From the IMG/VR virus record IMGVR_UViG_3300021319_000003: a stretch of 19,722 bases of DNA; one strand, 5' to 3'. This document shows positions 32 to 15,228 of this stretch, one piece after another. Under the pieces are notes generated by a model. It was not told the DNA's origin and made no database searches. It saw nothing but the letters and a program-made list of their open reading frames with translations. Position 1 is the first letter of the stretch. Each line of letters opens with the position of its first letter. A program made the translations under genes and the position numbers. The stretch comes from a virus. Lineage: Duplodnaviria > Heunggongvirae > Uroviricota > Caudoviricetes.

Positions 32-70
32 ATCGCCCTCCGGGCGATAAGTTGTCTTGTTTTTTATGAG
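32..70 (+). promoter_or_regulatory. Hairpin + conserved tail element, copy 1 (candidate N4-type hairpin promoter)
   Basis: ATCGCCC-TCC-GGGCGAT (32-48), then AAG and TTGTCTTGTTTTTTATGAG (52-70). The minus-strand loop reads C-GGA-G. The repeat is seen directly; promoter function is inferred. Confidence 0.6.
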
Positions 71-146
71 AAAAATGGTTTGTATTTGTTTGCAATCCGT
101 CTTTCTTGAGCACAATGTCTCCACACGTTATGCTGGTCACAAAACC

Positions 147-382
147 AGGAGGGAGTCTTAGGGCTCCCCACAGACAATATAAAGTTTCGTGCTTTGTGTT
201 GTGTGTGGGCAGTCTTAGTGGCATTAGACTGCTCCCTCCTAATAAAAAACAAAAAACAAAAAGGGAAGTTTCCAAACGGATTGTTTGGAGCCTTCTCAAA
301 GTCATGATATTTTTCTTCCCTGGGCAAGCCTTTTGTGGTTTGCCCAGTGTTTTCTTTTTTTGTTATCATGGTTTCGAGAAGG
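147..382 (+). ncRNA. Candidate structured RNA or 5' leader
   Basis: Closing stem AGGAGGGAG(147-155)/CTCCCTCCT(232-240) encloses a 17-bp stem (167-184/192-209, two G.U pairs) and CAGTCT/AGACTG. Further stems at 271-289 and 291-382. Confidence 0.5.
320..364 (+). terminator. Intrinsic terminator-like hairpin upstream of the first CDS
   Basis: CTGGGCAAGCC(320-330)/GGTTTGCCCAG(337-347) followed by TGTTTTCTTTTTTTGTT. Confidence 0.6.
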
Positions 383-416
383 TTTGTTTTCCTCTATACA
401 GAAAGGAAGAATAGCT

Positions 417-851
417 ATGATTGTTTATATTGTGGAATCCAGCAGATACTATGCTGAAATACCCGAAGTGAATACCGAAGCAGTCTTTGCCGCCCGCGAG
501 GACGCAGAGAGATTTGTGAAAAAAGCAACGCTTTATAATGCTATGCTTACAGACAGCCTCTCTTTCCGTGTTGTAGAACATGAGCTTTTGGAAAGCGAAA
601 ACTTCCGGCCCCAAAATATTGGCGTGTCCATATGGGAGGCAGAAGATGGTTCGCTTGCAAGACCATATGTATTTGCAACGGAAAGAGAAGTACATCCCAT
701 GAGGCGAAAAGAAGAGCTGAACTGTATGAATTACGCCGCCAGCTGGTATGGTGTGTTCCCCTATCAGGAGAGTATGTCCCAAAACGAACTGATTGAAATG
801 GCGCTTGCCCAGTGTGAAGAGCAAAGGAGTATGCACAATGACAAAAGATGA
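417..851 (+). CDS. Hypothetical phage protein, 144 aa
   Basis: GAAAGGAAG RBS before ATG 417. The N-terminus MIVYIV...VFAAREDAERFV resembles a common small phage early-protein motif. Confidence 0.8.
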   Translation: MIVYIVESSRYYAEIPEVNTEAVFAAREDAERFVKKATLYNAMLTDSLSFRVVEHELLESENFRPQNIGVSIWEAEDGSLARPYVFATEREVHPMRRKEELNCMNYAASWYGVFPYQESMSQNELIEMALAQCEEQRSMHNDKR

Positions 852-1269
852 ATTAAGAAACAAACTCAATGAAGAGCGTGGCTCGATGACAGGACTCTGC
901 TCCACCGAACTTGCTTTGGAAGTATGCAATATAGTGATGGATGAATGTAGCGCGCCTACGTTTGCAGGAAACAGTATTGCAGAAACTGAAGTGGGTCACT
1001 TTGCCATAAGTTTCGACGCAAGGGAATTTAGTGGCTGGCTCCGTGAATACGTCGCTACGGACATGTCATTTTACATGACAGAAAGGATGAGCCGGCTACT
1101 GGAATACTTTGGTATCAACCACACGGTATGGTCTGCCTATAAGGGAGTCCGCCAAAAGGACTTCCGGCATATCAGTCTGCCTATGTCCAAAATCCGCAAG
1201 GAATATCCGTACCTCTGGAAAACATGGAGCGGAGAGCCTATTTATCCAGAGGAAACGAGTGTAGCGTAA
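838..1269 (+). CDS. Hypothetical phage protein, 143 aa
   Basis: AAAGGAG RBS before ATG 838; overlaps the upstream stop; ends -SVA. Confidence 0.8.
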   Translation: MTKDELRNKLNEERGSMTGLCSTELALEVCNIVMDECSAPTFAGNSIAETEVGHFAISFDAREFSGWLREYVATDMSFYMTERMSRLLEYFGINHTVWSAYKGVRQKDFRHISLPMSKIRKEYPYLWKTWSGEPIYPEETSVA

Positions 1270-1288
1270 TCAGAAAGGAAGATTTGCT

Positions 1289-1681
1289 ATGAAAAAGTAT
1301 GCACTCAAAATCATCCGTGACAACGTTGTGGTAGTCCCAAACTGGGAAGTAACGCCCGTTAAGTTTGCAACGCTGGCGTTTGAAATGGTTATCCATAAAT
1401 ACCTGCCCGGTTCCTTTGACCGCTGGAAGGTGGTATCCCAACATGGCTGTTCCGTTAAGTATAAAGATGTGCTTACGGGAGAAACTGCATACTGCTGGCT
1501 GATGAAAAACGGCCGCATGGTAACGGACTTCGATGCGGAAGATAAACCGCAGGGGAGTCCGCTTACTGTATTTGCCGGCGGTAAGGCTGTACCGTGTGAT
1601 GACGCGCGCATGGCCGCCCGCATGACTGTTCATGCCATCTTCGAATCCCTTCGCCGGCCCACTGCACGCCGTGCTTCATAA
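1289..1681 (+). CDS. Hypothetical phage protein, 130 aa
   Basis: GAAAGGAAG RBS, MKKY start, tight packing. Confidence 0.8.
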   Translation: MKKYALKIIRDNVVVVPNWEVTPVKFATLAFEMVIHKYLPGSFDRWKVVSQHGCSVKYKDVLTGETAYCWLMKNGRMVTDFDAEDKPQGSPLTVFAGGKAVPCDDARMAARMTVHAIFESLRRPTARRAS

Positions 1682-1695
1682 GAGGAGGTTATCAA

Positions 1696-1848
1696 ATGGA
1701 AATTATCATTGTTGGCATGTTCTTTGCCGCCTTTTGTTCTGTTGCCGCGCTCATCGCATGGGGAATCATTTCCCTTGTGATAGATTGCATTAAGGGCCTG
1801 TTCACGAGCAGTGAGCCCAAGAAGAAACCCTACGGCTATAGAAGGTAA
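1696..1848 (+). CDS. Small single-pass membrane protein, 50 aa (not in ORF track)
   Basis: GAGGAGG RBS. MEIIIVGMFFAAFCSVAALIAWGIISLVIDCIKGLFTSSEPKKKPYGYRR has a hydrophobic N-terminal half and a basic tail. Confidence 0.75.
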   Translation: MEIIIVGMFFAAFCSVAALIAWGIISLVIDCIKGLFTSSEPKKKPYGYRR

Positions 1849-1855
1849 TGCCATT

Positions 1856-1890
1856 TCGCGCTTCGCGCGATATTGTCTTGTTTATTTTGA
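1856..1890 (+). promoter_or_regulatory. Hairpin + conserved tail element, copy 2
   Basis: TCGCGC-TTC-GCGCGA-TA-TTGTCTTGTTTATTTTGA; about 40 nt upstream of the RBS and ATG 1928. Confidence 0.65.
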
Positions 1891-1927
1891 GATGGTTTAA
1901 GGACGCATTGTGAAAGGAGCGTTTATT

Positions 1928-2071
1928 ATGAAAAAGACGTACATCTCGATTGAATGGGGCGACACTCGTACCCGGTTTGAACGGGCCGAAGCAATCAAGA
2001 AAGCCTTGGAGCTTGTAGCCCGCAAGGCAAAACCGAATACCCAGGAAGAAGCCGCCCGCAAAGCGGCTTAA
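1928..2071 (+). CDS. Hypothetical protein, 47 aa, ends -KAA (not in ORF track)
   Basis: GAAAGGAG RBS; MKKTYISIEWGDTRTRFERAEAIKKALELVARKAKPNTQEEAARKAA. Confidence 0.75.
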   Translation: MKKTYISIEWGDTRTRFERAEAIKKALELVARKAKPNTQEEAARKAA

Positions 2072-2085
2072 TTTTTTTGTTTTGT
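2049..2085 (+). terminator. Intrinsic terminator-like hairpin overlapping the stop codon
   Basis: AAGCCGC/GCGGCTT stem followed by AATTTTTTTGTTTTG. Confidence 0.55.
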
Positions 2086-2118
2086 TTGTTGTTTGTTGAA
2101 AAAAGGAGATTGAAAACC

Positions 2119-2535
2119 ATGGAAATTAAAATGAACTTCACGAAAAACGAAATGGCAACCATAGAGAAACTGCACAAGGCCTACAACCAGGCCTTCGGCC
2201 GCGATGACCACTACGAGGTAACAGGCCCTGTCCGCTTCTCCGTAAACCATATGCGCGGCGAAGCTACGGTTACGCTGGCCTTCAATGAGTTCTCCACTTG
2301 CGACATCATGGATATCGCAATCCGCAACAGCCACCTCGTCAAGAGTCTGGGTGCAACGGCAAAAGCACTGTTCGAGCTGGGCAAGAGCACGCTCAACATC
2401 CTGGAAGGCGAGCTCAAGTCGGTATGTGCCAAGTACAAGGAGAAGCCGAAGGCACAGGAGACAAGCGAGAAAAAGCCCTTTGGAAGTTTCGTTTCCAAAG
2501 AAGACATCGATGAAATGAATAACAAGGCGGCCTGA
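2119..2535 (+). CDS. Hypothetical protein, 138 aa, ends -KAA
   Basis: AAAGGAG RBS before ATG 2119; by eye, codon bias typical of high expression. Confidence 0.85.
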   Translation: MEIKMNFTKNEMATIEKLHKAYNQAFGRDDHYEVTGPVRFSVNHMRGEATVTLAFNEFSTCDIMDIAIRNSHLVKSLGATAKALFELGKSTLNILEGELKSVCAKYKEKPKAQETSEKKPFGSFVSKEDIDEMNNKAA

Positions 2536-2594
2536 CCCGAGCAGTCTGTCGCCTTACGGAATAACAAGATAAATGATAAAGGGAGATTGGGAAT

Positions 2595-2768
2595 ATGAAG
2601 AAACTGTTGAACTGGTATTTTGGAAATGGTATTGCGGCAGACGATAAAAGTATTCTGGCGCGAAGGCAGAAGATAAGCCAGGAAGCCAGAAACGTAATGG
2701 GCCAGGCAGTAGACGTGATTGCAACCGGTGCAGTCGTATTCTATGCCGTGGCTAAGAATATGCGCTGA
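2595..2768 (+). CDS. Hypothetical protein, 57 aa (not in ORF track)
   Basis: AAAGGGAG RBS; MKKLLNWYFGNG...VIATGAVVFYAVAKNMR with a moderately hydrophobic C-terminus. Confidence 0.65.
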   Translation: MKKLLNWYFGNGIAADDKSILARRQKISQEARNVMGQAVDVIATGAVVFYAVAKNMR

Positions 2769-2790
2769 TAAGAAAGGCAGGTTGTTAATC

Positions 2791-2958
2791 ATGTTGAATA
2801 CCAATGCAAATATTGAAAAAATCCGCAAACACAATCGTATGCACAGCGAGGGGCAGGAGCGTCGTATCCGTGACCGCGCAAAGCGGAAAATGACCCGCCG
2901 TGATTACGAACGGCTTGCGGAAGAAAAAGAATACGCCGGCTACAAAATCGCCGCGTGA
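2791..2958 (+). CDS. Small basic protein, 55 aa, ends -KIAA
   Basis: AGAAAGG upstream of ATG 2791; Arg/Lys-rich. Confidence 0.7.
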   Translation: MLNTNANIEKIRKHNRMHSEGQERRIRDRAKRKMTRRDYERLAEEKEYAGYKIAA

Positions 2959-3032
2959 TAAATTCTCGATAGAGACGCCGCAGGATAATATCCTCTTGTC
3001 TGGATAGTGCCGTCTCCGTCGATACACCCTCT

Positions 3033-3067
3033 TCGCCCTTCGGGCGATATTGTCTTGTTTATTTTGG
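3033..3067 (+). promoter_or_regulatory. Hairpin + conserved tail element, copy 3
   Basis: TCGCCC-TTC-GGGCGA-TA-TTGTCTTGTTTATTTTGG. Confidence 0.65.
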
Positions 3068-3134
3068 GCTTCCCGGTAATCCCCTGAAAACATCCCCCAT
3101 GCTTTTCACTTTCTCGCTGGGAAGCCTATTTTTT
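3066..3134 (+). ncRNA. Candidate small RNA or terminator with a C5 apical loop
   Basis: GGGCTTCCCGG/CTGGGAAGCCT 11-bp stem (two G.U pairs), inner TGAAAA-CAT/ATG-TTTTCA, loop CCCCC, followed by ATTTTTT. Confidence 0.45.
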
Positions 3135-3164
3135 ATTGATTGAACAGTAAAGGAGTTAATCATC

Positions 3165-3428
3165 ATGTTATTTTGCAGTGATATCGAAACGTTATTTCCT
3201 GGTACGTATCACCGTCACATCAATGCGCACAGACTGACTACTTTGTGCGACAGCTTCCACAGTGTCAGCCATGACAAGCTGGATACCATCCGCAAGGATA
3301 CCCGTGATGGCGAGCTGGTTATCGCCGCCCGCCTGAAAACCGACTATGGTGAAACCATCTTCTTTACCGATAACACGACTTTCAACGACCTCGTGGCTCT
3401 TAGCGAGGAGGCTAAAGTCGCCGCATAA
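3165..3428 (+). CDS. Hypothetical protein, 87 aa, ends -KVAA
   Basis: AAAGGAG RBS and ATG 3165. Confidence 0.8.
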   Translation: MLFCSDIETLFPGTYHRHINAHRLTTLCDSFHSVSHDKLDTIRKDTRDGELVIAARLKTDYGETIFFTDNTTFNDLVALSEEAKVAA

Positions 3429-3556
3429 ATCCCCACCTTGGCAAACGAGGAGCATTAAGCTCTTCGTTGTGTGCTAAAGAGTGCCCCCTATCACTTTTCA
3501 GCATACAACGAAAGGCTTAAATCTTACAGCCACGGCTACCCTCTCATCAAGAGCTT

Positions 3557-3592
3557 GTCTGCTCCGCAGACGATTGTCTTGTTTTTTATGAG
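3557..3592 (+). promoter_or_regulatory. Hairpin + conserved tail element, copy 4
   Basis: GTCTGC-TCC-GCAGAC-GA-TTGTCTTGTTTTTTATGAG. The stem sequence differs from copies 1-3, but the fold, loop type and tail are kept. Confidence 0.65.
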
Positions 3593-3789
3593 GGATTTGG
3601 ACCTCGGACATACAGGCTATATACTAATAATTCATGCCTGTCAACCTGTCCCGTCCTACAGCTACAGCTGGATTATCCTTTCATCGTATACCCTACCCAG
3701 AAGGACAGCGCGTCCAGAAATGTTAACATGTATCCCGCCAAAGCGAAATGCTAATAAATGAGCGGGGCAAGAAAAGGAGAATGATAATT

Positions 3790-4734
3790 ATGGCAACCAA
3801 TGTAAATGTAAACGCAATCGTAAAAGAACAGGCTCAGGCACCGGTATCCCGTCGCGCCGCAATGCTCGCAGGTCTTTCCAAGCAGATGGAAGCAGTAAAT
3901 ATCCTGACTGACAAGGCCCGCGCAAAACGCGAAGAAGAGCTCAAGAACAACACCGTCATCATGTCGGTTGTTTCCTCCCGTGGTTATGTTGGCTTCGTAG
4001 CAGGCGATATCGCAGAGAACATCGTAGAACCCGCGCTGGTTTGCCCTGCAGTAAATACCAAATCTGGTGAGCGTCTGTCGGCTCCCGTTGCTACGCTTAT
4101 CGGCGCCAGCAAGGCTATTGCCAAGGCCGAAACCTATGGCAAGGAACATCTGGTTCTTTATGTCAACGACTTTGAGGCCCGCCGTCTTAGTGGTATGCTC
4201 TCCCGCATCAACAAGGGTGACAACACCGTGCTGACGCCTGCAGAAAAGGAACATATCAACGATGAACGCAACAGCGCGAAATATGGTCAGGCCTACATGG
4301 CAACGGCAGGCACGGTATTCAAAATGCTCCAGGACGCAAAACAGAAGTTTAAGTCCGTACGCGTTATGGGCCACAGCTCCATCTTTGGCTGGGAAACCCG
4401 CTACAACCTTCCGCTCGACATGGAAAACATGGAACTGACCTTCGTGAAAGGTTTGGCTTCCACCATGCACAAAGGGCGCAACTACCGCATCACGCTTGCT
4501 TCGGGCTTCAAGCTCAATGGCAAGCATAAGCTGGTTAAGGCTAACGGCAACCTCGTGGTAGAGCGGGAAATCAAGGCAGGCTCCGAACAGGAAACCGCCC
4601 GTGACCTCTTGTCCATCGCCAACCAGACGATTATCATTGAGGACGCCAAGAACCGCAATGAAGAATTCGTCGGCGACATGGAGGCTGTTGCAGAACCGCA
4701 GGAAGAATCCGCAGGTTTCGACTTTGCCGCATAA
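3790..4734 (+). CDS. Hypothetical protein, about 314 aa, ends -DFAA
   Basis: AAAAGGAG RBS, ATG 3790 (alternative 3781), strong codon bias; weak RNase H-like pattern in the middle. Confidence 0.88.
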   Translation: MATNVNVNAIVKEQAQAPVSRRAAMLAGLSKQMEAVNILTDKARAKREEELKNNTVIMSVVSSRGYVGFVAGDIAENIVEPALVCPAVNTKSGERLSAPVATLIGASKAIAKAETYGKEHLVLYVNDFEARRLSGMLSRINKGDNTVLTPAEKEHINDERNSAKYGQAYMATAGTVFKMLQDAKQKFKSVRVMGHSSIFGWETRYNLPLDMENMELTFVKGLASTMHKGRNYRITLASGFKLNGKHKLVKANGNLVVEREIKAGSEQETARDLLSIANQTIIIEDAKNRNEEFVGDMEAVAEPQEESAGFDFAA

Positions 4735-4748
4735 GTGAATGAAACAGG

Positions 4749-4781
4749 CTGGACTGCTCAAGGCGGGCAGTCCAGTTTTTG
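4749..4781 (+). terminator. Intrinsic terminator
   Basis: CTGGACTGC/GCAGTCCAG 9-bp stem followed by TTTTTG, 14 nt after the stop. Confidence 0.7.
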
Positions 4782-4806
4782 TCGTCAAGAAAGGACGGAA
4801 AGAAAA

Positions 4807-5100
4807 ATGATTATGAATAAAGTATGCCCGAAATATATCGTATTCCCGAAATCCAACAACCGCGCCAATTCCAAAGTAACCTGGACGCTTCGTAAGAACC
4901 TTACGAATGGCTGGGTAAATATTTCCGCCAAAATTCCGCAGACCTGCATTGACGCATATGGTCTGATTGACCCCGAGGTTATGCACCTGCTTCGTACACC
5001 GTGCACAAAGAGCCGTTTCGCTCTCCGTTCCCTGTACAGGGTAGAGGTCAGTTATGATTACCACCTTATCGAAGACGCGGTTATGCCGATTGCCGCTTGA
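4807..5100 (+). CDS. Hypothetical protein, about 97 aa, ends -PIAA
   Basis: AAGAAAGGA upstream of ATG 4807 (alternative 4813). Confidence 0.75.
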   Translation: MIMNKVCPKYIVFPKSNNRANSKVTWTLRKNLTNGWVNISAKIPQTCIDAYGLIDPEVMHLLRTPCTKSRFALRSLYRVEVSYDYHLIEDAVMPIAA

Positions 5101-5132
5101 TAAGGTAACAGCCCCTTGAGGAGGGATTTTGT

Positions 5133-5867
5133 ATGGCAACCGAAAAAGACAAAACAACTGCCCAGGGGGCAAATGACCCTGTTCTCGATTTCCTGGGCGG
5201 TACTCTGGAAGCAATGCTTGGTCCAGACCTGAAAGAAGAACCGCCACAGGAAAAAATCGAGGACGCAGAGATTACAAAAGACGTACAGGAGGAAGAAAAG
5301 ATGAGTAAAGAGAATGTGACGACGATTGACAATGAAACGGGAGAGGTTCTGCAGGATAAGTTCAGCAAGAAGTTTGAATCCCGTCAGGAAGCGAACAACC
5401 TGCTGGATTTGCTCGACAGCCTCGGCTATGAAGACAGCTATGAAACCAGCGATGGCGGTAAGACGGTTATCCTCTCGGGTGTTTCCGCAGAGGATTTACA
5501 GCTTATCCAGCGCAAAGCGAACATCAAGCTCTGGTCTGACCGTACGCAGGCGGTAGCAAAAGCCGTCACCACGTTTGCAACGGATGTTGCTGACTATGCC
5601 CTGAATGGCGCACTTGCACCGACGGCTGGTGCAGTCGTAAATGCTGGTATGACCACGGGCCGTGTTGTGGCCACCGCCGCAGTTTCTGTTGGCGCCGCAA
5701 CGCTTGCAACGACTATCCGCAATGGCCGTGCCGCCGCCCGTGAGCTTTCCCGCAACAAGGATGTTCAGGATGCCTGGAATGAAGTAAAGGGTCTGGGCTC
5801 CGACATTGGCGGTCTGCTCTTCGGCTCCAAAGGCAGTTCCAAGTCTGATTGGACTGCTTGTGCCTGA
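5133..5867 (+). CDS. Hypothetical protein, 244 aa, acidic N-terminus and Ala/Gly/Val/Thr-rich C-terminal half
   Basis: GAGGAGGG RBS; a second in-frame start with AGGAGG at about 5301 (MSKENV...). Confidence 0.85.
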   Translation: MATEKDKTTAQGANDPVLDFLGGTLEAMLGPDLKEEPPQEKIEDAEITKDVQEEEKMSKENVTTIDNETGEVLQDKFSKKFESRQEANNLLDLLDSLGYEDSYETSDGGKTVILSGVSAEDLQLIQRKANIKLWSDRTQAVAKAVTTFATDVADYALNGALAPTAGAVVNAGMTTGRVVATAAVSVGAATLATTIRNGRAAARELSRNKDVQDAWNEVKGLGSDIGGLLFGSKGSSKSDWTACA

Positions 5868-5880
5868 TAAGTAAAGAAAC

Positions 5881-5917
5881 GTCCGTCCGCTATTTTTTTG
5901 GCGGGCGGATTGTTTTT
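5881..5917 (+). terminator. Intrinsic terminator
   Basis: GTCCGTCCGCTA/TGGCGGGCGGAT stem of about 12 bp with G.U pairs, followed by TGTTTTT, directly after the 5867 stop. Confidence 0.7.
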
Positions 5918-5944
5918 ATAAGTTACTCAAAGGAGGATACCGTT

Positions 5945-6082
5945 ATATTTGCTTTATTGTTTGCCTTATTCGAGTTAGGTTCTGAAGTGAACCAGTTTAT
6001 CGAAATAGAAGTTGAAAAGGACGAGCGCGAAATCAGAAGACTAAAAGGCGAACAGCAAAAAGCGCGCGCCCGTAAATCCTAA
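5945..6082 (+). CDS. Possible 45-aa protein with a non-canonical ATA start, or a decayed gene
   Basis: Perfect AGGAGG (5931-5936) 8 nt before an in-frame ATA; reads (M)FALLFALFELGSEVNQFIEIEVEKDEREIRRLKGEQQKARARKS. Confidence 0.35.
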   Translation: MFALLFALFELGSEVNQFIEIEVEKDEREIRRLKGEQQKARARKS

Positions 6083-6403
6083 TCCGAAATTCATGCTTAC
6101 GAAAGGAGTGAGATAAGCACCATGGTAACTATTGTGACATATTTAAGCAAGCTATACAAAACAAACGCTTCCAGAAATATGACATATTCAAGAAACATAG
6201 CTTATGTCACAAACGCCTGTAAAAATACCAGCCCCTTCCCCACCCATAAACAAGAAGAAAGACCACTTACTTATCTCATGGGTAAAAAGGCTGATAAGTG
6301 CCCGAAGGATTTCCGCCCAGGACTTATCCATGGCCGTCCCCATACCTACCCCTCGGGAGGGATTAAGGCACCGCCCGCTAAATTGGCTCCAGGGATTTAG
6401 CTT

Positions 6404-6457
6404 AACCTTATGAGCGCAGATAGACTGTATTCGGTTAGCAAAACCTTATGAGCGCAG
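6404..6457 (+). repeat. 16-bp direct repeat AACCTTATGAGCGCAG x2, with a third variant at 7217-7232
   Basis: Exact copies at 6404-6419 and 6442-6457; AACCTTGTGAGCGCAG at 7217-7232. Confidence 0.85.
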
Positions 6458-6533
6458 TCTTATCAGCAAAACAAAGATAAGACAAACATAAAGGTTAAGA
6501 TAAAGAACATAAAGAGCTTATTTATATATACAA

Positions 6534-7184
6534 GCGAGCGAGCGAAGCGAGCGAGCATAATAACAAGCTAAAAAAAAGAAATAAATAGAGCTTGTTTAAA
6601 AAAGCGAGCGTAGCGAGCGTATATAAAATAAGACAAAAAAGAAAACAAGAAAGAAAAAAGATTTAAGATACAAACTTTTACAGGAACAGTAAAAGTAGTT
6701 CAAAGTATATTAAATCAAAAAAGATAAGACAATGACAATATCTTAAATAAAATAAAAGATATTAAGTCATGTCCTTATCAAGGGGCGAGCGAAGCGAGCC
6801 CCGTTAAACACTACAAAAGGGCGTTACATCATTCTGTCCCAAGTAAATTCCCTATCTACTGGATACAGAATTATCCCATTTCTCCCTTCTCGTGTATATA
6901 CAAATATATATCCCCATATATATTCCCCTCTTTATACCGCAAGGGGAGAAAGAGTATTCACATACTCCGCCCGCTACTACCCGCGCGCGACCTCCGGCGC
7001 GCAAATTGTATCGTTCTTTATGCATATATTAATTATATCATTCACACACACCTCTAACAGGATATACATATATATACTACACACTCCCCATATATAGGAG
7101 TGCTGTTCGATATATATATACCAATATACACATAAAGAGCCATATAATTTAGGGCTTCAGGCGGGCGAGCGTAAGCGAGCCCGC
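6534..7184 (+). repeat. Four GCGAGC-GN(N)A-GCGAGC hairpin repeats
   Basis: Copies at 6534-6556, 6604-6618, 6782-6802 and 7161-7184; a CGC-GAA-GCG mini-hairpin at 7276-7284. Confidence 0.85.
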
Positions 7185-7435
7185 AATACAACAAGTGTGC
7201 TAAGAACGGTTACTTGAACCTTGTGAGCGCAGCACACGTATCTTTGCCTGACATACCCAGGAGCAAAAACCAAAACGCGAAGCGCAAAATTAATAAAATA
7301 TAAATCTGTAAACCAAGTCCATAGAAAGAGTACACAAGTATTACAATAAAAATACAAGTGAACGAAATTCAAGAAAAAGATATATTCTCCCCTATAGGGA
7401 AAATAATACTTTTTGAAAGACAGGTTTACACTTTG

Positions 7436-7548
7436 GACAAATTTTGCAAGACAAATTTTTCGCGGTGCAGATTTTTGAAAACTCCGGGACAAATTTTTTA
7501 CTGCAGTCCACCAGCAAAATTTCTGAACTGGATTTTGCGGACAAATTT
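7436..7548 (+). repeat. GACAAATTT(T) direct repeats x4, with a fifth at 7995-8004
   Basis: Copies at 7436, 7450, 7488, 7540 and 7995. Confidence 0.75.
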
Positions 7549-7805
7549 GCGGAAGGCAAACCAAAAACGCCAGACACATCTGAAATACAGATTTTCGAAG
7601 TGGCATTTGTAAAAAGTTAGTTCCAAAACGCCCGCTACACCCGTTATCTTTAACGTAGCGCGACGATAGCAGGATAATTTTTAAAAAGTGCCACAAGGAA
7701 ATTGGAGCTTCATATGAGGCTAATTTGGCCCATACAGGGGAGATTCGATGAGGTACGATTCAAGCTCCGTTTTTCAAAAAGCGTTATATTATCGCTTTAA
7801 TTCTA

Positions 7806-7834
7806 TTGATGTACCTAGTCCGCCCCATTATTAT
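7806..7834 (+). promoter_or_regulatory. Candidate sigma70/sigmaA promoter
   Basis: TTGATG-17 nt-TATTAT. Confidence 0.4.
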
Positions 7835-8123
7835 AGTGTCTTTTACCCCTCTATCGTGTTCCTTGTTCCTCTATCCTTCCCCTTGTTGTAGCATGCTATG
7901 TAGAGTCCGTTGCCGCAGGCAAGTATCCGAGTTATCCCCTTGATAATGCTGGAGGTAGACGAGTTAGAGCGTAAAGAAAAAGAGGTAAGTTTTTGACAAA
8001 TTTTTTGGAGCGAGGTTGCACCGAGGCATGTAAAAGATTGTTCTGAACGGTAAGGAGAAGTACCCTAATACCGATTTATTTTTCCTTAATTACAAGTTCT
8101 TGAGATTTTTATACACCCCTTAC

Positions 8124-8153
8124 TTGACAATGAGGTGGTTATCCGTGTATATT
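8124..8153 (+). promoter_or_regulatory. sigma70/sigmaA-type promoter for the downstream gene run
   Basis: Perfect TTGACA, 18-nt spacer, TATATT; 85 nt upstream of ATG 8238. Confidence 0.7.
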
Positions 8154-8237
8154 ATGTTAGGTAGATTAAGAATACGTTAGTAAGATTAGAGAGATTGAAT
8201 AAAGAGATAGAGAGATAAGCAAGGAAGGTGTATACTG

Positions 8238-9002
8238 ATGAAGGTATATGAACTGATACGCGAACTGGCCAAGTGCGACCCCAACAAAGATGTGGAAGGT
8301 AGCATGAAGAATAAGGATAACATCCCTGAAAGCTATAGTGTTAAGCGTGTAAGAGACTCAGGTTTATTAGATACAGTCTGGGTTGAGTTTGAGCCACACG
8401 CATACAAAAAGCAGCGCGCGGTAAAGAATAGCAGTAAGACTGCGCCGGAGAAGATGACGAGAAAGCAGTTCTTCTATCGGATGGTTAGAGACAACTGGAA
8501 TGAAGAGTTCCAGGGCGTAGCCCGGCATGTCTGTGGAAGAATGCCATACTATGTACTTGCTGATGTAGATATATTCCTGGAAGCGTTCTCGAAGCTGTCC
8601 GATAAGGAACAGATATATTATATTGAACACATGGCAGAGTACGAAGGTTCTTTTCACCAGCTTAGTGAACCTCATCGGCATCAGTTAAGCTGCATCAACG
8701 AAGATAACTACAATAAGAGCGCTAAGTATCTGGTTACGGTTATGTTCAAGTGGCATAATACGGAGGCGCCGAGTGATGACCACATTACGGAACAGAAGTT
8801 TATCTCGGACTATTATATTGATAGTACGGAAGATAAGACTGTAAAAGAGATTGTTAAGAACGTATGGAAATGTTGCAGCGGACACTATGAAAACGAGCCG
8901 CCGCGCAAATATAGAAATGGCCTTGAGTTCCGGTACAGCAGTTGGTGCTGGTGTTACATCGCGGTAAAATCAGAGCCATTGCTTATCGAGACAGATGAAT
9001 GA
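8238..9002 (+). CDS. Hypothetical phage protein, 254 aa
   Basis: AAGGAAGG RBS; MKVYELIRELAKCDPNKDV is a typical phage small-protein N-terminus. Confidence 0.85.
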   Translation: MKVYELIRELAKCDPNKDVEGSMKNKDNIPESYSVKRVRDSGLLDTVWVEFEPHAYKKQRAVKNSSKTAPEKMTRKQFFYRMVRDNWNEEFQGVARHVCGRMPYYVLADVDIFLEAFSKLSDKEQIYYIEHMAEYEGSFHQLSEPHRHQLSCINEDNYNKSAKYLVTVMFKWHNTEAPSDDHITEQKFISDYYIDSTEDKTVKEIVKNVWKCCSGHYENEPPRKYRNGLEFRYSSWCWCYIAVKSEPLLIETDE

Positions 9003-9027
9003 TTGAATAAGACAGGAGAGATATAAA

Positions 9028-9459
9028 ATGGCAGAAGTTAAGACTATGGCAGAGAATATGGCATTTGACTGGAGAGACTTTGAAAAGTACGGAGTAGAGG
9101 CGGTTGTTCTCTGCAATGTAGAGGATGAAGATAAACCTGTACTCGGCATCTGCGCAAAAGGTATGGGAACCTATGGAGGCGAAGAGTATATTCTTGAGCG
9201 CTTGAGCTATGACTATGCCGAGAGAGAAGGAGAAAGTGACCTGAGCCTTGAGAAGTGGATGTATAAGCATGCAGACAAGCTCGCTTCTCTTATCTGGAGA
9301 TACATTAACGAGGGCCTGTACTTGGACTCGAAAGAAGATGTATGGTATGCAGATAAGGTATGTCTCTATACACCCGCGAGCAAAATTCCGTGGCCGAGAA
9401 TGCCCAAGGGCTTTAAGGTGCGGAAAGAGAATGAGAATATAAAGCTTATCATGCATTAA
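9028..9459 (+). CDS. Hypothetical protein, paralog of 9930-10295
   Basis: AGGAG RBS; shares FDW.DF, E.YI..RL and WMY.HADKLAS motifs with the paralog. Confidence 0.85.
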   Translation: MAEVKTMAENMAFDWRDFEKYGVEAVVLCNVEDEDKPVLGICAKGMGTYGGEEYILERLSYDYAEREGESDLSLEKWMYKHADKLASLIWRYINEGLYLDSKEDVWYADKVCLYTPASKIPWPRMPKGFKVRKENENIKLIMH

Positions 9460-9496
9460 GTAAGTAAGAAGAATAAGAAGGAGAATATATAGAGCT

Positions 9497-9913
9497 ATGT
9501 CTTATACATTAACTGTTAATATCAATCTGGAGAGTATGGATATAGAATCGCTTAAAAATCTGCGCGCCGAAATTGATAAGCTGCTCGCAAAGAAACAGCT
9601 TGCCAGTAACCTGCCGAAGTTAAGTGGCAGCCTGAAGCAAAAAATGCAGAACAACCCAACGCTTGCTCCAGAGCTCAGCAAAAGGTTTTATGCAGTAGGC
9701 TGTAAAAACCTGGAAGACATATATAACTATCCGCCCGAAAAGATGGTCTGGCTGGAAAAACTTACCCTGTCAAGCATTGACCATACCCTGTATGTATTAA
9801 AAGCCCATGGGTACGATTACGAAATGCGCTGGATTACCACTGTAAATGAGATGAAGGATAAGCTCCGGCAGATTAAGAAAGAGAAGAAGGACGGCAGATT
9901 TTCAGTAGCTTAA
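9497..9913 (+). CDS. Protein with a degenerate RNAP alpha-CTD-like (HhH) domain, paralog of 13273-13821
   Basis: AAGGAG RBS; shares G...DIY..PP...L.K...L...GYDYE..W..T..EM with the paralog. Confidence 0.7.
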   Translation: MSYTLTVNINLESMDIESLKNLRAEIDKLLAKKQLASNLPKLSGSLKQKMQNNPTLAPELSKRFYAVGCKNLEDIYNYPPEKMVWLEKLTLSSIDHTLYVLKAHGYDYEMRWITTVNEMKDKLRQIKKEKKDGRFSVA

Positions 9914-11091: not shown

Positions 11092-11670
11092 ATGAGCGTT
11101 TTTATACAGAAGATGATGACTTGTGTAGACGGCCGTGATATTAAGGAAGTGCTGGGTGATGTTGCGCGCCCAATGGAAAAGGTTAGCTACAAACACACCC
11201 AGGAATATATTTCCGGAAAGTACGAATATGTCTTTGGGATGGTGCGCTACAATCATTTGGCAATCGACCTGTATGAAATTGCCCCACACCTGTTCGATAA
11301 AAAGAAGGATATGGAAGAAGGCTTCCTTATCCATGATATGAATGGTCATTTTGACGCAGAGGAAAAGTATCTGCGCTTTGGCTTCAAGGTTTTGAAGAAA
11401 GACGAAACCTGGACGACCTTCTCGCATCCGTTTTATAAAGAAGTGCTTGATACCTACTATCAGGAGGAAGTACACTTTGGTGACCACAATGAAATGTGGT
11501 GGTGTGGCAATTACCACATCAATGAAACGGTTGACTTTGCGGTTTCTTACAGATTCCCCGATACCGAGTTCGAGGTAAAAGAAATCTGCGAAAACGACCT
11601 GGTTGCGCATTATATCTTAAAAGCCGGCCGTATCGTCAAGAACCTTCTCAAAGAAAAGCAGGCAGCTTAA
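11092..11670 (+). CDS. Hypothetical protein, 192 aa, ends -KQAA
   Basis: AGAAAGGAAG RBS. Confidence 0.85.
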   Translation: MSVFIQKMMTCVDGRDIKEVLGDVARPMEKVSYKHTQEYISGKYEYVFGMVRYNHLAIDLYEIAPHLFDKKKDMEEGFLIHDMNGHFDAEEKYLRFGFKVLKKDETWTTFSHPFYKEVLDTYYQEEVHFGDHNEMWWCGNYHINETVDFAVSYRFPDTEFEVKEICENDLVAHYILKAGRIVKNLLKEKQAA

Positions 11671-14871: not shown

Positions 14872-15228
14872 TTGAAGAAAAAGATTTTAGGCATTTTAGG
14901 CGCAATCGTTCTTGCAAGCGCGAGCGTAGCGAGCGCAGGAGAAGTTATATCCCATGCAGAAATGCGTGGTGTCATTAAGGCGAATCATGCAGATTTTATC
15001 TACTGTGTGGAAACCTACCGAGCTAATATTTTCCACGCAGAGTCTCTGGATGATATTGTAGAATACTACATGCAGAAGAATACCTACAGCATCCGCGAAC
15101 ACAATGAATTCAAGGAAGGTATCATGGAGGCAAATCCGTGGCTTTACGACCGTGAAAATGCGCGCGGCCAGATTATGGTAGACGCCGGCGAAGAAATTGT
15201 CGTGTACTACTGGAAAAAATGTAAATAA
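14872..15228 (+). CDS. Exported protein with a signal peptide and a probable degenerate LysM domain
   Basis: AGGAG RBS with TTG start; signal peptide MKKKILGILGAIVLASASVASA; ESLDDIVEYY...IMEANPWL...GEEIVV resembles LysM (GDTL..IA..Y...I...N......G..L.I). Confidence 0.6.
   Translation: MKKKILGILGAIVLASASVASAGEVISHAEMRGVIKANHADFIYCVETYRANIFHAESLDDIVEYYMQKNTYSIREHNEFKEGIMEANPWLYDRENARGQIMVDAGEEIVVYYWKKCK

Follow-up and report, generated by a model that had tools for sequence, protein, structure and literature searches.

What kind of element are the GCGAGC repeats that lie in the spacer behind the early genes of a large gut phage, and in which nucleic acid do they act? The window analyzed here is a 19,722-nt stretch of IMG/VR virus record IMGVR_UViG_3300021319_000003 (Caudoviricetes), corresponding to positions 156403–176124 of that 235,547-bp record. 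An original prediction made from the letters of the window placed four elements on its + strand, and a direct reading of 6300–7500 confirmed all four at their places. E1 (6534–6556) is a double-unit hairpin, GCGAGCGAGC-GAA-GCGAGCGAGC, which resolves into (GC)(GA)(GC)(GA)(GC)-GAA-(GC)(GA)(GC)(GA)(GC). E2 (6604–6618) is the minimal hairpin, GCGAGC-GTA-GCGAGC, and lacks a Watson-Crick flank, while E3 (6782–6802) reads GGG-GCGAGC-GAA-GCGAGC-CCC and E4 (7161–7184) reads GCGG-GCGAGC-GTAA-GCGAGC-CCGC. To these can be added a plain + strand mini-hairpin without the GA step, C-GCGAAGC-G, at 7276–7284 (core 7277–7283), which ends at the right boundary of the predicted region, 7284, and a fifth + strand element, E5 (14918–14936; core match 14920–14934), which reads GC-GCGAGC-GTA-GCGAGC-GC within the signal-peptide codons of an open reading frame (ORF) at 14872–15228. 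The comparative data described below make it very probable that these elements form a conserved hairpin family and are not direct repeats.

The elements are rare, specific and confined to one strand. The motif search proposed with the original prediction, GCGAGCGN{1,2}AGCGAGC, matched the window five times, always on the + strand, with an expectation of 0.00 from 200 shuffles; the same five are the only matches in the 235,547-bp genome, and the − strand has none. A structure-only scan, which accepted any Watson-Crick pair at the four arm positions together with GA on both arms and a G..A loop, recovered the same five elements plus two AT-rich chance matches, with 0.85 expected. GCGAGC is itself over-represented in the window (19 occurrences vs 8.6 expected), and the mini-hairpin sequence GC-G(N)1-2A-GC is present in all five elements as well as in the plain copy at 7277–7283. 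Within the 2.1-kb spacer, GCGNAGC/GCGNNAGC motifs number six on the + strand and none on the − strand.

Related phages carry the same family at the same address. Relatives were found through the 244-aa protein encoded at 5133–5867: two loci in IMG/VR (L115 and L116, 74% identity) and eight further loci (L243–L250, 42–62% identity) taken from a large protein collection in which this protein has 105 relatives. In all ten, the homologous gene is followed by a gene-poor gap of 2.5–7.4 kb, and every gap contains the same hairpins. The resulting catalogue comprises 55 copies, 52 of them on the + (sense) strand; with two doubtful copies removed, 50 of the remaining 53 are intergenic. Both arms are exactly GCGAGC in 43 of the 55, and the loops include GTAA (16 copies), GTA (14), GAA (9), GGA (2) and GCA (1), with 35 beginning GTA. 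L246 and L250 each have a single − strand copy, located to the left of their + strand copies. An imperfect − strand G.A-type hairpin was also noted at G000 155541–155571 (L254 2541–2571); built of two GA steps, a loop of GAA and an outer stem of GGCC/GGCC, it lies ~300 nt left of the first of the early-type elements discussed below and is conserved in G001 and G002. Other searches for relatives gave no result: blastn of 6000–8000 against the phage collection found no match, the 254-aa downstream protein had no relative in the IMG/VR search, and among metagenome contigs the protein patterns found no relatives and the 15-mer box pattern gave only chance matches with no blast similarity to the window.

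The evidence that the arms pair comes from an alignment (A3) in which 47 copies are compared together with the six bases that flank them on either side. Pairing at the four Watson-Crick arm positions is complete (100% of cells: GC44/CG2, CG42/UA3/UG1, GC38/AU8 and CG46), compensatory double changes occur at three of the four, and only 1 of 184 arm cells is a G.T wobble. The GA and AG columns are invariant, the C-G closing pair is present in 46 of the 47 copies, and the first loop position is G in at least 90%. Outside the arms, the four inner flank pairs are paired in ~60–70% of sequences, with four to five pair types each, and 8 of the 19 copies whose first flank is unpaired continue instead, like E1, with another GA/GA step and then GC/GC. 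Covariation scores 0.329, as against 0.129 ± 0.014 for shuffled alignments, none of 500 of which reach it, and 0.04–0.18 for slid registers. Individual substitutions tell the same story: in the E3 orthologue of L115/L116, GGG-GCGAAC-GAA-GTGAGC-CCC, base five of the 5′ arm and base two of the 3′ arm have both changed, turning G-C into A-T, and elsewhere GTGAGC is found with GCGAAC (C-G to T-A), CCGAAC with GTGAGG, and CTGAGC with GCGAAG. Mirror-image, compensatory changes of this kind could not arise from direct repeats that serve as a duplex binding site; the repeats are therefore hairpin arms. The covarying arms and flanks, together with the invariant GA and AG columns, thus bear out the proposed antiparallel pairing in the order G-C, C-G, G.A, A.G, G-C, C-G. 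As read from the aligned sequences, the grammar is one of alternating (GC) and (GA) units atop a variable Watson-Crick stem: a 2-bp GC apex with a G..A loop (GNA or GNNA), the invariant G.A/A.G step, two G-C pairs, and an outer part that is either a variable Watson-Crick stem of 0–6 bp or a further GA+GC unit.

This architecture is strand-specific. In the window, C-GA-G stands on both arms, so that the tandem G.A context 5′-Py-GA-Pu-3′ lies opposite itself. The complementary strand would carry T.C mismatches, and for that reason only the purine-bearing strand is expected to fold well. Nearest-neighbor folding found the proposed fold to have the minimum free energy in each of E1–E4 and, with both RNA and DNA parameters, rated the + strand as more stable than the − strand in every case. 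For RNA, the + and − strand values in kcal/mol are −7.7 and −3.2 for E1, −3.7 and −1.4 for E2, −13.4 and −11.3 for E3, and −18.0 and −14.4 for E4; the corresponding DNA values are −1.6 and −0.7, −1.0 and −0.3, −6.1 and −5.3, and −9.6 and −8.6, from generic parameters (−1 to −9.6 kcal/mol for the + strand) that omit the special loop terms of mini-hairpins. The folding z score of E4 is −4.5 as RNA and −2.9 as DNA. Folding and comparative evidence therefore agree with the earlier claim that only the + strand folds well.

Conservation at the nucleotide level singles out the hairpins from their surroundings. When the window is aligned with L115/L116, E1, E2 and E4 appear as islands of full identity in a spacer that is otherwise much diverged: E1 is identical while its flanks diverge, E2 is kept with an added ATATA/TATAT flank, E4 is identical at 24/24 nt, and the plain mini-hairpin at 7276–7284 is conserved as GCGCGAAGCGC. 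E3 is preceded by a possible second small hairpin at 6766–6785 (CCTT-ATC-AAGG), which in L115 is found at 7724–7741 (CCCCT-ATTA-AGGGG); it shares GGG(G) with the 5′ flank of E3, so that the two folds are mutually exclusive. E5 offers a different kind of comparison, as it lies 48 nt into its ORF, in the A-S-V-A-S-A part of the signal peptide. Its 21 nt (AGC GCG AGC GTA GCG AGC GCA) are identical in the G002 homologue, whereas almost every codon nearby differs, synonymous sites of conserved residues included. That these nucleotides are kept amid diverged codons indicates that selection acts on the nucleotides. At L245 13997–14020, a G.A hairpin flanked by GCGC/GCGC reaches into the end of a 470-aa gene, whose stop codon is the TAA of the GTAA loop; several other copies sit in short intergenic gaps inside operons or at gene ends (for example, L249 9710 and L245 14001).

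The hairpins also mark a site of gene exchange. Where the window has E4 alone, L115 (8167–10347) and L116 (8158–10331) have two G.A hairpins in like orientation, flanked by GCGG/CCGC and GCCG/CGGC, and inserted between them a gene for a 670-aa protein with a Bro-N domain. This shows the hairpins to be joints for the gain or loss of gene cassettes, and recombination between the repeats would explain the Bro-N case.

The same core is not limited to these phages. GCGAGC-GNA-GCGAGC with Watson-Crick flanks of 3–11 bp was found in unrelated IMG/VR contigs (L007, L010, L011, L030, L066, L070, L077, L084 and L085), among them 2–3.5-kb contigs and giant-virus metagenome-assembled genome (MAG) fragments, and some of the unrelated contigs that have the 15-mer with complementary flanks are of the size of small circular single-stranded DNA (ssDNA) viruses. 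Across unrelated contigs, flank complementarity around GAA-loop cores averages 0.83 bp vs 0.23 bp in the control, and at least 2 bp are paired in 15 of 70 vs 2 of 70; GGA loops are enriched as well and GCA loops are not. As far as sequence comparison can tell, these observations suggest a building block in independent, repeated use by unrelated viruses. In another unrelated contig, L019, the copies lie on the sense strand near gene 3′ ends and include a convergent pair.

If the elements are hairpins, do they act as DNA or as RNA? We lean toward DNA as the probable site of action, although not with great confidence. Loops are the first consideration: 26 of the 55 are GNA triloops closed by C-G, which is the rule for extraordinarily stable DNA mini-hairpins, and DNA GCGNAGC and GCGNNAGC both melt at ~76 °C and are bound poorly by single-stranded DNA-binding protein (SSB) (PMC13037366). 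GTA and GTAA loops have been exchanged at one orthologous site (L243 10563 vs L247 10584). The 15-nt E2 is marginal as RNA, with −3.7 kcal/mol and a z score of +0.24, no better than shuffles. Watson-Crick pairs never take the place of the G.A step, even though its neighbors covary freely, which is what would be expected if the complementary strand must not fold and is a constraint that would be meaningless for RNA. The G.A hairpins also coexist in these phages with hairpins whose GRA loops lie on the opposite strand, pointing to DNA-type loop rules that are obeyed on both strands. The 15-mer with complementary flanks in contigs sized like small circular ssDNA viruses, and the enriched flank complementarity around GAA and GGA loops in unrelated contigs, also speak for DNA. 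Taken together, the GNA triloops, the GTA/GTAA exchange, the rarity of G.T pairs and the weakness of the 15-nt form as RNA fit the rules of ssDNA better than those of RNA.

Among possible roles in DNA, the one we favor, tentatively and with somewhat less than even confidence, is a model in which the hairpins are SSB-resistant landmarks on ssDNA in an origin-like control spacer, each functional step of which we infer. The context would suit an origin: the spacer is AT-rich, contains two sets of iteron-like repeats and a box motif conserved across lineages, and retains its position beside the early cassette in every relative. The + strand could become transiently single-stranded as a displaced non-template strand, as the lagging-strand template or by extrusion from the AT-rich, easily melted spacer. 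The hairpins, standing between the early cassette and the next operon, might then provide landing sites for a primase, a helicase loader or another phage protein, or might alternatively serve as locks that hold open a bubble or R-loop made by transcription. The G.A step would be the device that makes folding strand-specific, and the use of the hairpins as joints for cassette gain or loss would be a by-product. The − strand copies left of the + strand copies in L246 and L250, and the imperfect one left of the early cassette here, are in the arrangement expected if the hairpins mark the single-stranded strand on each side of a start site. Thus, the reading of the elements as ssDNA-state signals continues to give the best fit, with a role in sense-strand RNA nearly as likely.

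A bolder extension, which we consider doubtful, is a ‘one-strand-only’ DNA hairpin code. G.A pairs would have been selected so that the + strand folds into an SSB-proof landmark while the complement stays open, a phage protein would read the landmark to start replication or to switch to it from early transcription, and the building block would have been adopted independently by unrelated viruses, including those represented by ssDNA-virus-sized and giant-virus contigs. One candidate reader would be a conserved RNase H1-fold protein encoded just upstream of the spacer.

The alternative that survives best is action in RNA, a minority view in our estimate but a serious one. The hairpins would fold in + sense transcripts as binding sites for phage or host proteins, whether as nut/boxB-like antitermination sites, translational or stability regulators, exonuclease blocks or processing marks, and the G.A pairs would be a recognition feature. 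Much of what speaks for this alternative weighs directly against the ssDNA model. The copies in the window, like 52 of the 55 in the family, are on the sense strand and would be present in any sense transcript, and the predominantly intergenic location (50 of 53), including short operon gaps and gene ends such as L249 9710 and L245 14001 with its stop codon in the loop, is compatible with such a role, as are the sense-strand copies near gene 3′ ends, convergent pair included, in the unrelated L019. GTAA, GAAA and GGAA are GNRA loops, the first two of them good RNA tetraloops, and the flanked copies are predicted to be stable as RNA (−13 to −18 kcal/mol for E3 and E4). Tandem G.A in the context 5′-CGAG-3′ is also a very stable RNA motif. 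The possible competing hairpin before E3, read in the L115 register, keeps its pairing in the window through G.T wobbles on the + strand, which gives it an RNA-like look; the CTCTTACAA box that follows three L249 hairpins is boxA-like; and an in-gene copy such as E5 would be harmless as a factor-loading site. Contigs of an RNA library extend across the spacer; as contigs reveal no strand and no ends, and the library could contain DNA, they are not evidence of transcription and allow no conclusion about it. Two further points also weigh against the ssDNA model: general priming of the lagging strand would call for more than five copies per 235 kb, and the L249 loops GTAC, GTAT and GTAG fit neither the DNA nor the RNA loop rule.

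Other observations are difficult to reconcile with an RNA role. About half of the loops are GNA triloops, which have no special stability in RNA, the unflanked copies are weak as RNA, and G.U pairs are nearly absent. E1–E4 lie between a terminator at 5881–5910 and a strong promoter at 8124, making it unclear which transcript would carry them, and the − strand copies of L246 and L250 have no − strand gene nearby. There is no U-tract, and the hairpins are thus not intrinsic terminators; a terminator scan of the + strand flagged only 5881–5910, and E1–E4 lack a T tract. Searches for tRNAs and Rfam families gave no match in the window or in the gaps of the relatives, with Rfam 15 returning nothing at gathering level in the window or in the gaps of seven relatives (noise only, E up to 5). 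Lambda-type nut boxB and rrn boxB-boxA sites, antitermination sites in RNA that work between a promoter and terminators together with boxA and a cognate RNA-binding protein, are likewise short sense-strand hairpins with GNRA-like loops, followed in one lineage here by a CTCTTA-containing box, but the present family differs in its many clustered copies, its common triloops and a box that is specific to one lineage (L249 only).

A second alternative, which we regard as unlikely, is a strand-specific DNA transaction other than priming, in which the hairpins would direct localized nicks or serve as hairpin ends for a single-strand transposase or recombinase. Localized nicks are known from T5, tf and phiKMV-like phages, with 14 nick motifs in phage tf, on the top strand only (PMC3517423); the few copies per genome on one strand resemble this pattern, but the known nick motifs are plain sequences and not hairpins (PMC3517423). 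The 670-aa Bro-N gene inserted between two hairpins in L115/L116 and the occurrence of IS200/IS605-type elements in these phages would suit a transposase, but recombination among the repeated hairpins accounts for the Bro-N gain equally well, the cluster has no linked Y1 transposase or nickase, and many copies have no cargo between them.

The original prediction also raised the idea that the hairpins are leftward promoters for the same polymerase as the elements at 32–3592. Read as promoters of the coliphage N4 type, with the + strand as template for a virion-type RNA polymerase, this we consider very unlikely. N4 early promoters, used by the virion RNA polymerase, have 5-bp stems with GGA or GAA loops (PMC13037366). 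A promoter of this type would be expected to have a perfect stem of 5–7 bp and a 3-nt loop, and the two systems share small hairpins, 3-nt purine loops closed by C-G and an asymmetry of strands that matters. N4-like perfect hairpins with GRA loops on the template strand do occur in this genome: the small + strand genes that occupy 417–5867 are punctuated by hairpin + TTGTCTTGTTT elements, six in the genome, whose perfect hairpins have their GRA loops on the opposite strand. The C-G-closed GNA loops of the G.A hairpins likewise lie on what would be the template strand for leftward transcription. However, they are on the non-template strand of all their neighbors with no unit on their side, no leftward ORF exists in or left of the spacer, and a search left of the G.A hairpins for the early-element tail or any common box found neither. 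The stems contain two mismatches and most loops are GTA or GTAA, 35 of 55 beginning GTA where GGA or GAA would be needed; E5 lies inside a + strand gene and another copy supplies a stop codon. The TTGTCTTGTTT tail is confined to the lineage of the window, and the G.A family persists in relatives that lack it. The promoter claim is therefore disfavored.

Least credible, and largely refuted, is the idea that direct GCGAGC repeats are read by a protein in double-stranded DNA without any hairpin, which would account for the strong conservation of the arm (both exact in 43 of 55 copies) and its over-representation in the window (19 vs 8.6), but not for arm changes that are compensatory instead of parallel or for flanks that are inverted complements of varying sequence.

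How does the family relate to hairpins of known function? Tandem sheared G.A pairs in a 5′-Py-GA-Pu-3′ context are known from nuclear magnetic resonance (NMR) studies of (GGCGAGCC)2-type duplexes. The present arms have the same 5′-C-GA-G-3′ on both sides, the most stable context in DNA and RNA alike, but those duplexes are models, whereas here the step is part of a conserved natural block that can be repeated as (GC)(GA)(GC)(GA). The ops element read by RfaH is a small DNA hairpin on the non-template strand of the transcription bubble, and it contains GCGGTAGC, a GCGNNAGC motif. Like ops, the present hairpins have a GCGNNAGC-type mini-hairpin on the non-template strand, are orientation-specific and occur in long leaders and occasionally inside operons; ops, however, is 12 nt long and fits the bubble, whereas the present hairpins need 15–30 nt of single strand and covary over as many as 12 pairs. 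Promoter-stem-loop (PeSL) cassettes of T4-type phages and REP/BIME elements offer another comparison; the PeSL and REP stems are ordinary Watson-Crick palindromes spread genome-wide. They share with the present family the repeated intergenic hairpins that flank inserted genes (compare the Bro-N cassette in L115/L116), but the present hairpins contain G.A pairs, are strand-specific and are confined to one region.

Close precedents are DNA mini-hairpins at sites where ssDNA is primed. Such mini-hairpins occur at the complementary-strand origins of G4, St-1 and alpha3 and at RSF1010 ssiA (Hirao and co-workers; reviewed in PMC13037366). The likeness extends to the GC-GNA-GC or GC-GNNA-GC apex, the G.A pair that closes the loop, strand specificity, a location in non-coding control DNA of phages, and membership of the class that binds SSB poorly. 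Two differences stand out: here an invariant tandem G.A/A.G step and further GC pairs are added, and the host genome is that of a 235-kb double-stranded phage instead of an ssDNA phage or plasmid. Single-strand initiation and primosome assembly hairpins such as G4 ori-c, RSF1010 ssiA/B and the ColE1 pas are strand-specific, lie in origin regions and support the synthesis of primers on SSB-coated ssDNA; the present hairpins are strand-specific and are set in an AT-rich spacer with two iteron-like sets, a candidate origin.

A literature search for the exact 15- and 16-mers found no paper with these sequences in the library covered. The chemistry of mini-hairpins and of sheared tandem G.A pairs was already known, as were N4 promoters and ssi signals as precedents for functional DNA mini-hairpins; the novelty lies in a family of composite elements that covary, are strand-polar and occupy a conserved position in a group of large gut phages. 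Few biological roles are on record for mini-hairpins and sheared G.A pairs (N4 promoters, the origins of ssDNA phages and ssiA), and this family unites the two motifs in a naturally occurring element that evolution has tested, whose covariation is clean, whose strand polarity is strict and whose place in the genome is conserved. The phages concerned form a widespread group with almost no annotated genes, and the hairpins offer a concrete handle on how they organize the border at which early genes give way to the remainder of the genome. Annotation centered on palindromes or on RNA misses this class of hairpin. Should the ssDNA model prove correct, pairs other than Watson-Crick ones would offer a general means of confining a DNA signal to one strand.

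The candidate reader mentioned above is a 314-aa early protein (3790–4734) that is encoded just upstream of the spacer in all relatives and has no Pfam match. Its structural model has a mean predicted local distance difference test (pLDDT) score of 82.8, and residues ~50–290 match type-1 RNase H, with VIA-align Z scores of 10.3–11.7 and root-mean-square deviations of 2.6–3.9 Å over 113–151 residues in the top ten rows, all of which belong to RNase H1 or retroviral RNase H; NurA follows as the next fold, with a score of 8.4. Foldseek gave E values of 1e-5 to 3e-4. The DEDD catalytic residues are not conserved in an alignment of nine sequences, and in light of this and of the fold match we describe the product as a predicted nuclease-fold protein and ascribe no activity to it. 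It is a candidate partner of the hairpins but not evidence for a role of theirs. A 55-aa arginine-rich early protein (2791–2958) that had been considered as an N-like partner was set aside, being conserved only in the closest relative.

In the 235,547-bp genome, the first ~145 kb have their genes on the − strand; past that point the genes are on the + strand. In the early regions of all lineages, perfect hairpins like those of the hairpin + TTGTCTTGTTT elements are common, their loops reading TCC or TTC on the + strand and GRA on the − strand (for example, L246 5429 and 5471, L250 6015, and L248 422 and 11366). The genome also encodes three adjacent proteins of 2234–3081 aa with no Pfam or PDB sequence match. 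Two of them, of 2907 and 3081 aa (L118 and L119; G000 76624–85347 and 85410–94655, − strand) each contain a DKDGD motif, and judging by the motif this is possibly the two-barrel RNA polymerase signature seen in crAss-like virion polymerases.

The spacer itself follows the early genes and has two small ORFs and then ~1.8 kb without genes, at a GC content of ~0.36. Its left boundary is a canonical intrinsic terminator after the 244-aa gene (5881–5910, + strand), and its right boundary is a strong sigma-70-type promoter (TTGACA, 18 nt, TATATT; 8124–8153, + strand) before the gene at 8238. Contigs from RNA and DNA runs that map to 5000–9500 cover the spacer at a lower stated depth than its flanks and are broken at E1. 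Purine richness of the + strand near the hairpin clusters reaches 0.60–0.72 in some lineages but not in all, and was dropped as an argument. A degenerate early-type element at 6985–7022 (+ strand), kept in L115/L116, consists of a bulged hairpin with a TCC loop and a tail related to the TTGTCTTGTTT tail. Three GGACAAATTT repeats at 7435–7548 (+ strand), spaced by exactly 52 bp or five helical turns, look like iterons or operators; additional GACAAATTTTT copies are present at 7450 and 7995.

The box motif is represented by AACCTTATGAGCGCAG at 6404–6419, by a second copy 38 nt after the first (6442–6457), and by a third, AACCTTGTGAGCGCAG, 33 nt after E4 (7217–7232), all on the + strand; as AACCTTRTGAGCGCAG, these three are the only copies in the genome, and all lie within the spacer. 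Relatives have the form GACCTACCGAGCGCA, preceding their hairpin clusters. Written as (R)ACCT-N3-GAGCGC(A), the box is conserved and non-palindromic and usually stands 20–190 nt ahead of a cluster, with copies at L243 9378, 9424 and 10192, L245 9181 and 9870, L248 9595 and 9628, and L244 9524. It may serve as an iteron or as a promoter that a phage polymerase uses. In L249, the most distant relative, hairpins at 9249–9262, 9730–9745 and 11185–11198 are followed by A(A/G)(C/T)TCTTACAA, the CTCTTA-containing CTCTTACAA box, which resembles the boxA element (CGCTCTTA) found at nut and rrn sites of antitermination. The A/C-rich boxes of other lineages differ, with ACATCAAA and AACAAG among them.

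Several known motif classes were also compared with the hairpins (hammerhead, K-turn, CRISPR repeat, CsrA sponge and attC) and set aside, as the bulge, core, spacing or GGA loops that they need are absent. Elsewhere in these phages, the early region of one relative has an Rfam match to the type II hammerhead ribozyme (L243 2081–2165; 44 bits vs a gathering score of 37), and another relative has one to RAGATH-18 RNA beside an IS605 OrfB/TnpB gene (L244 902–976).

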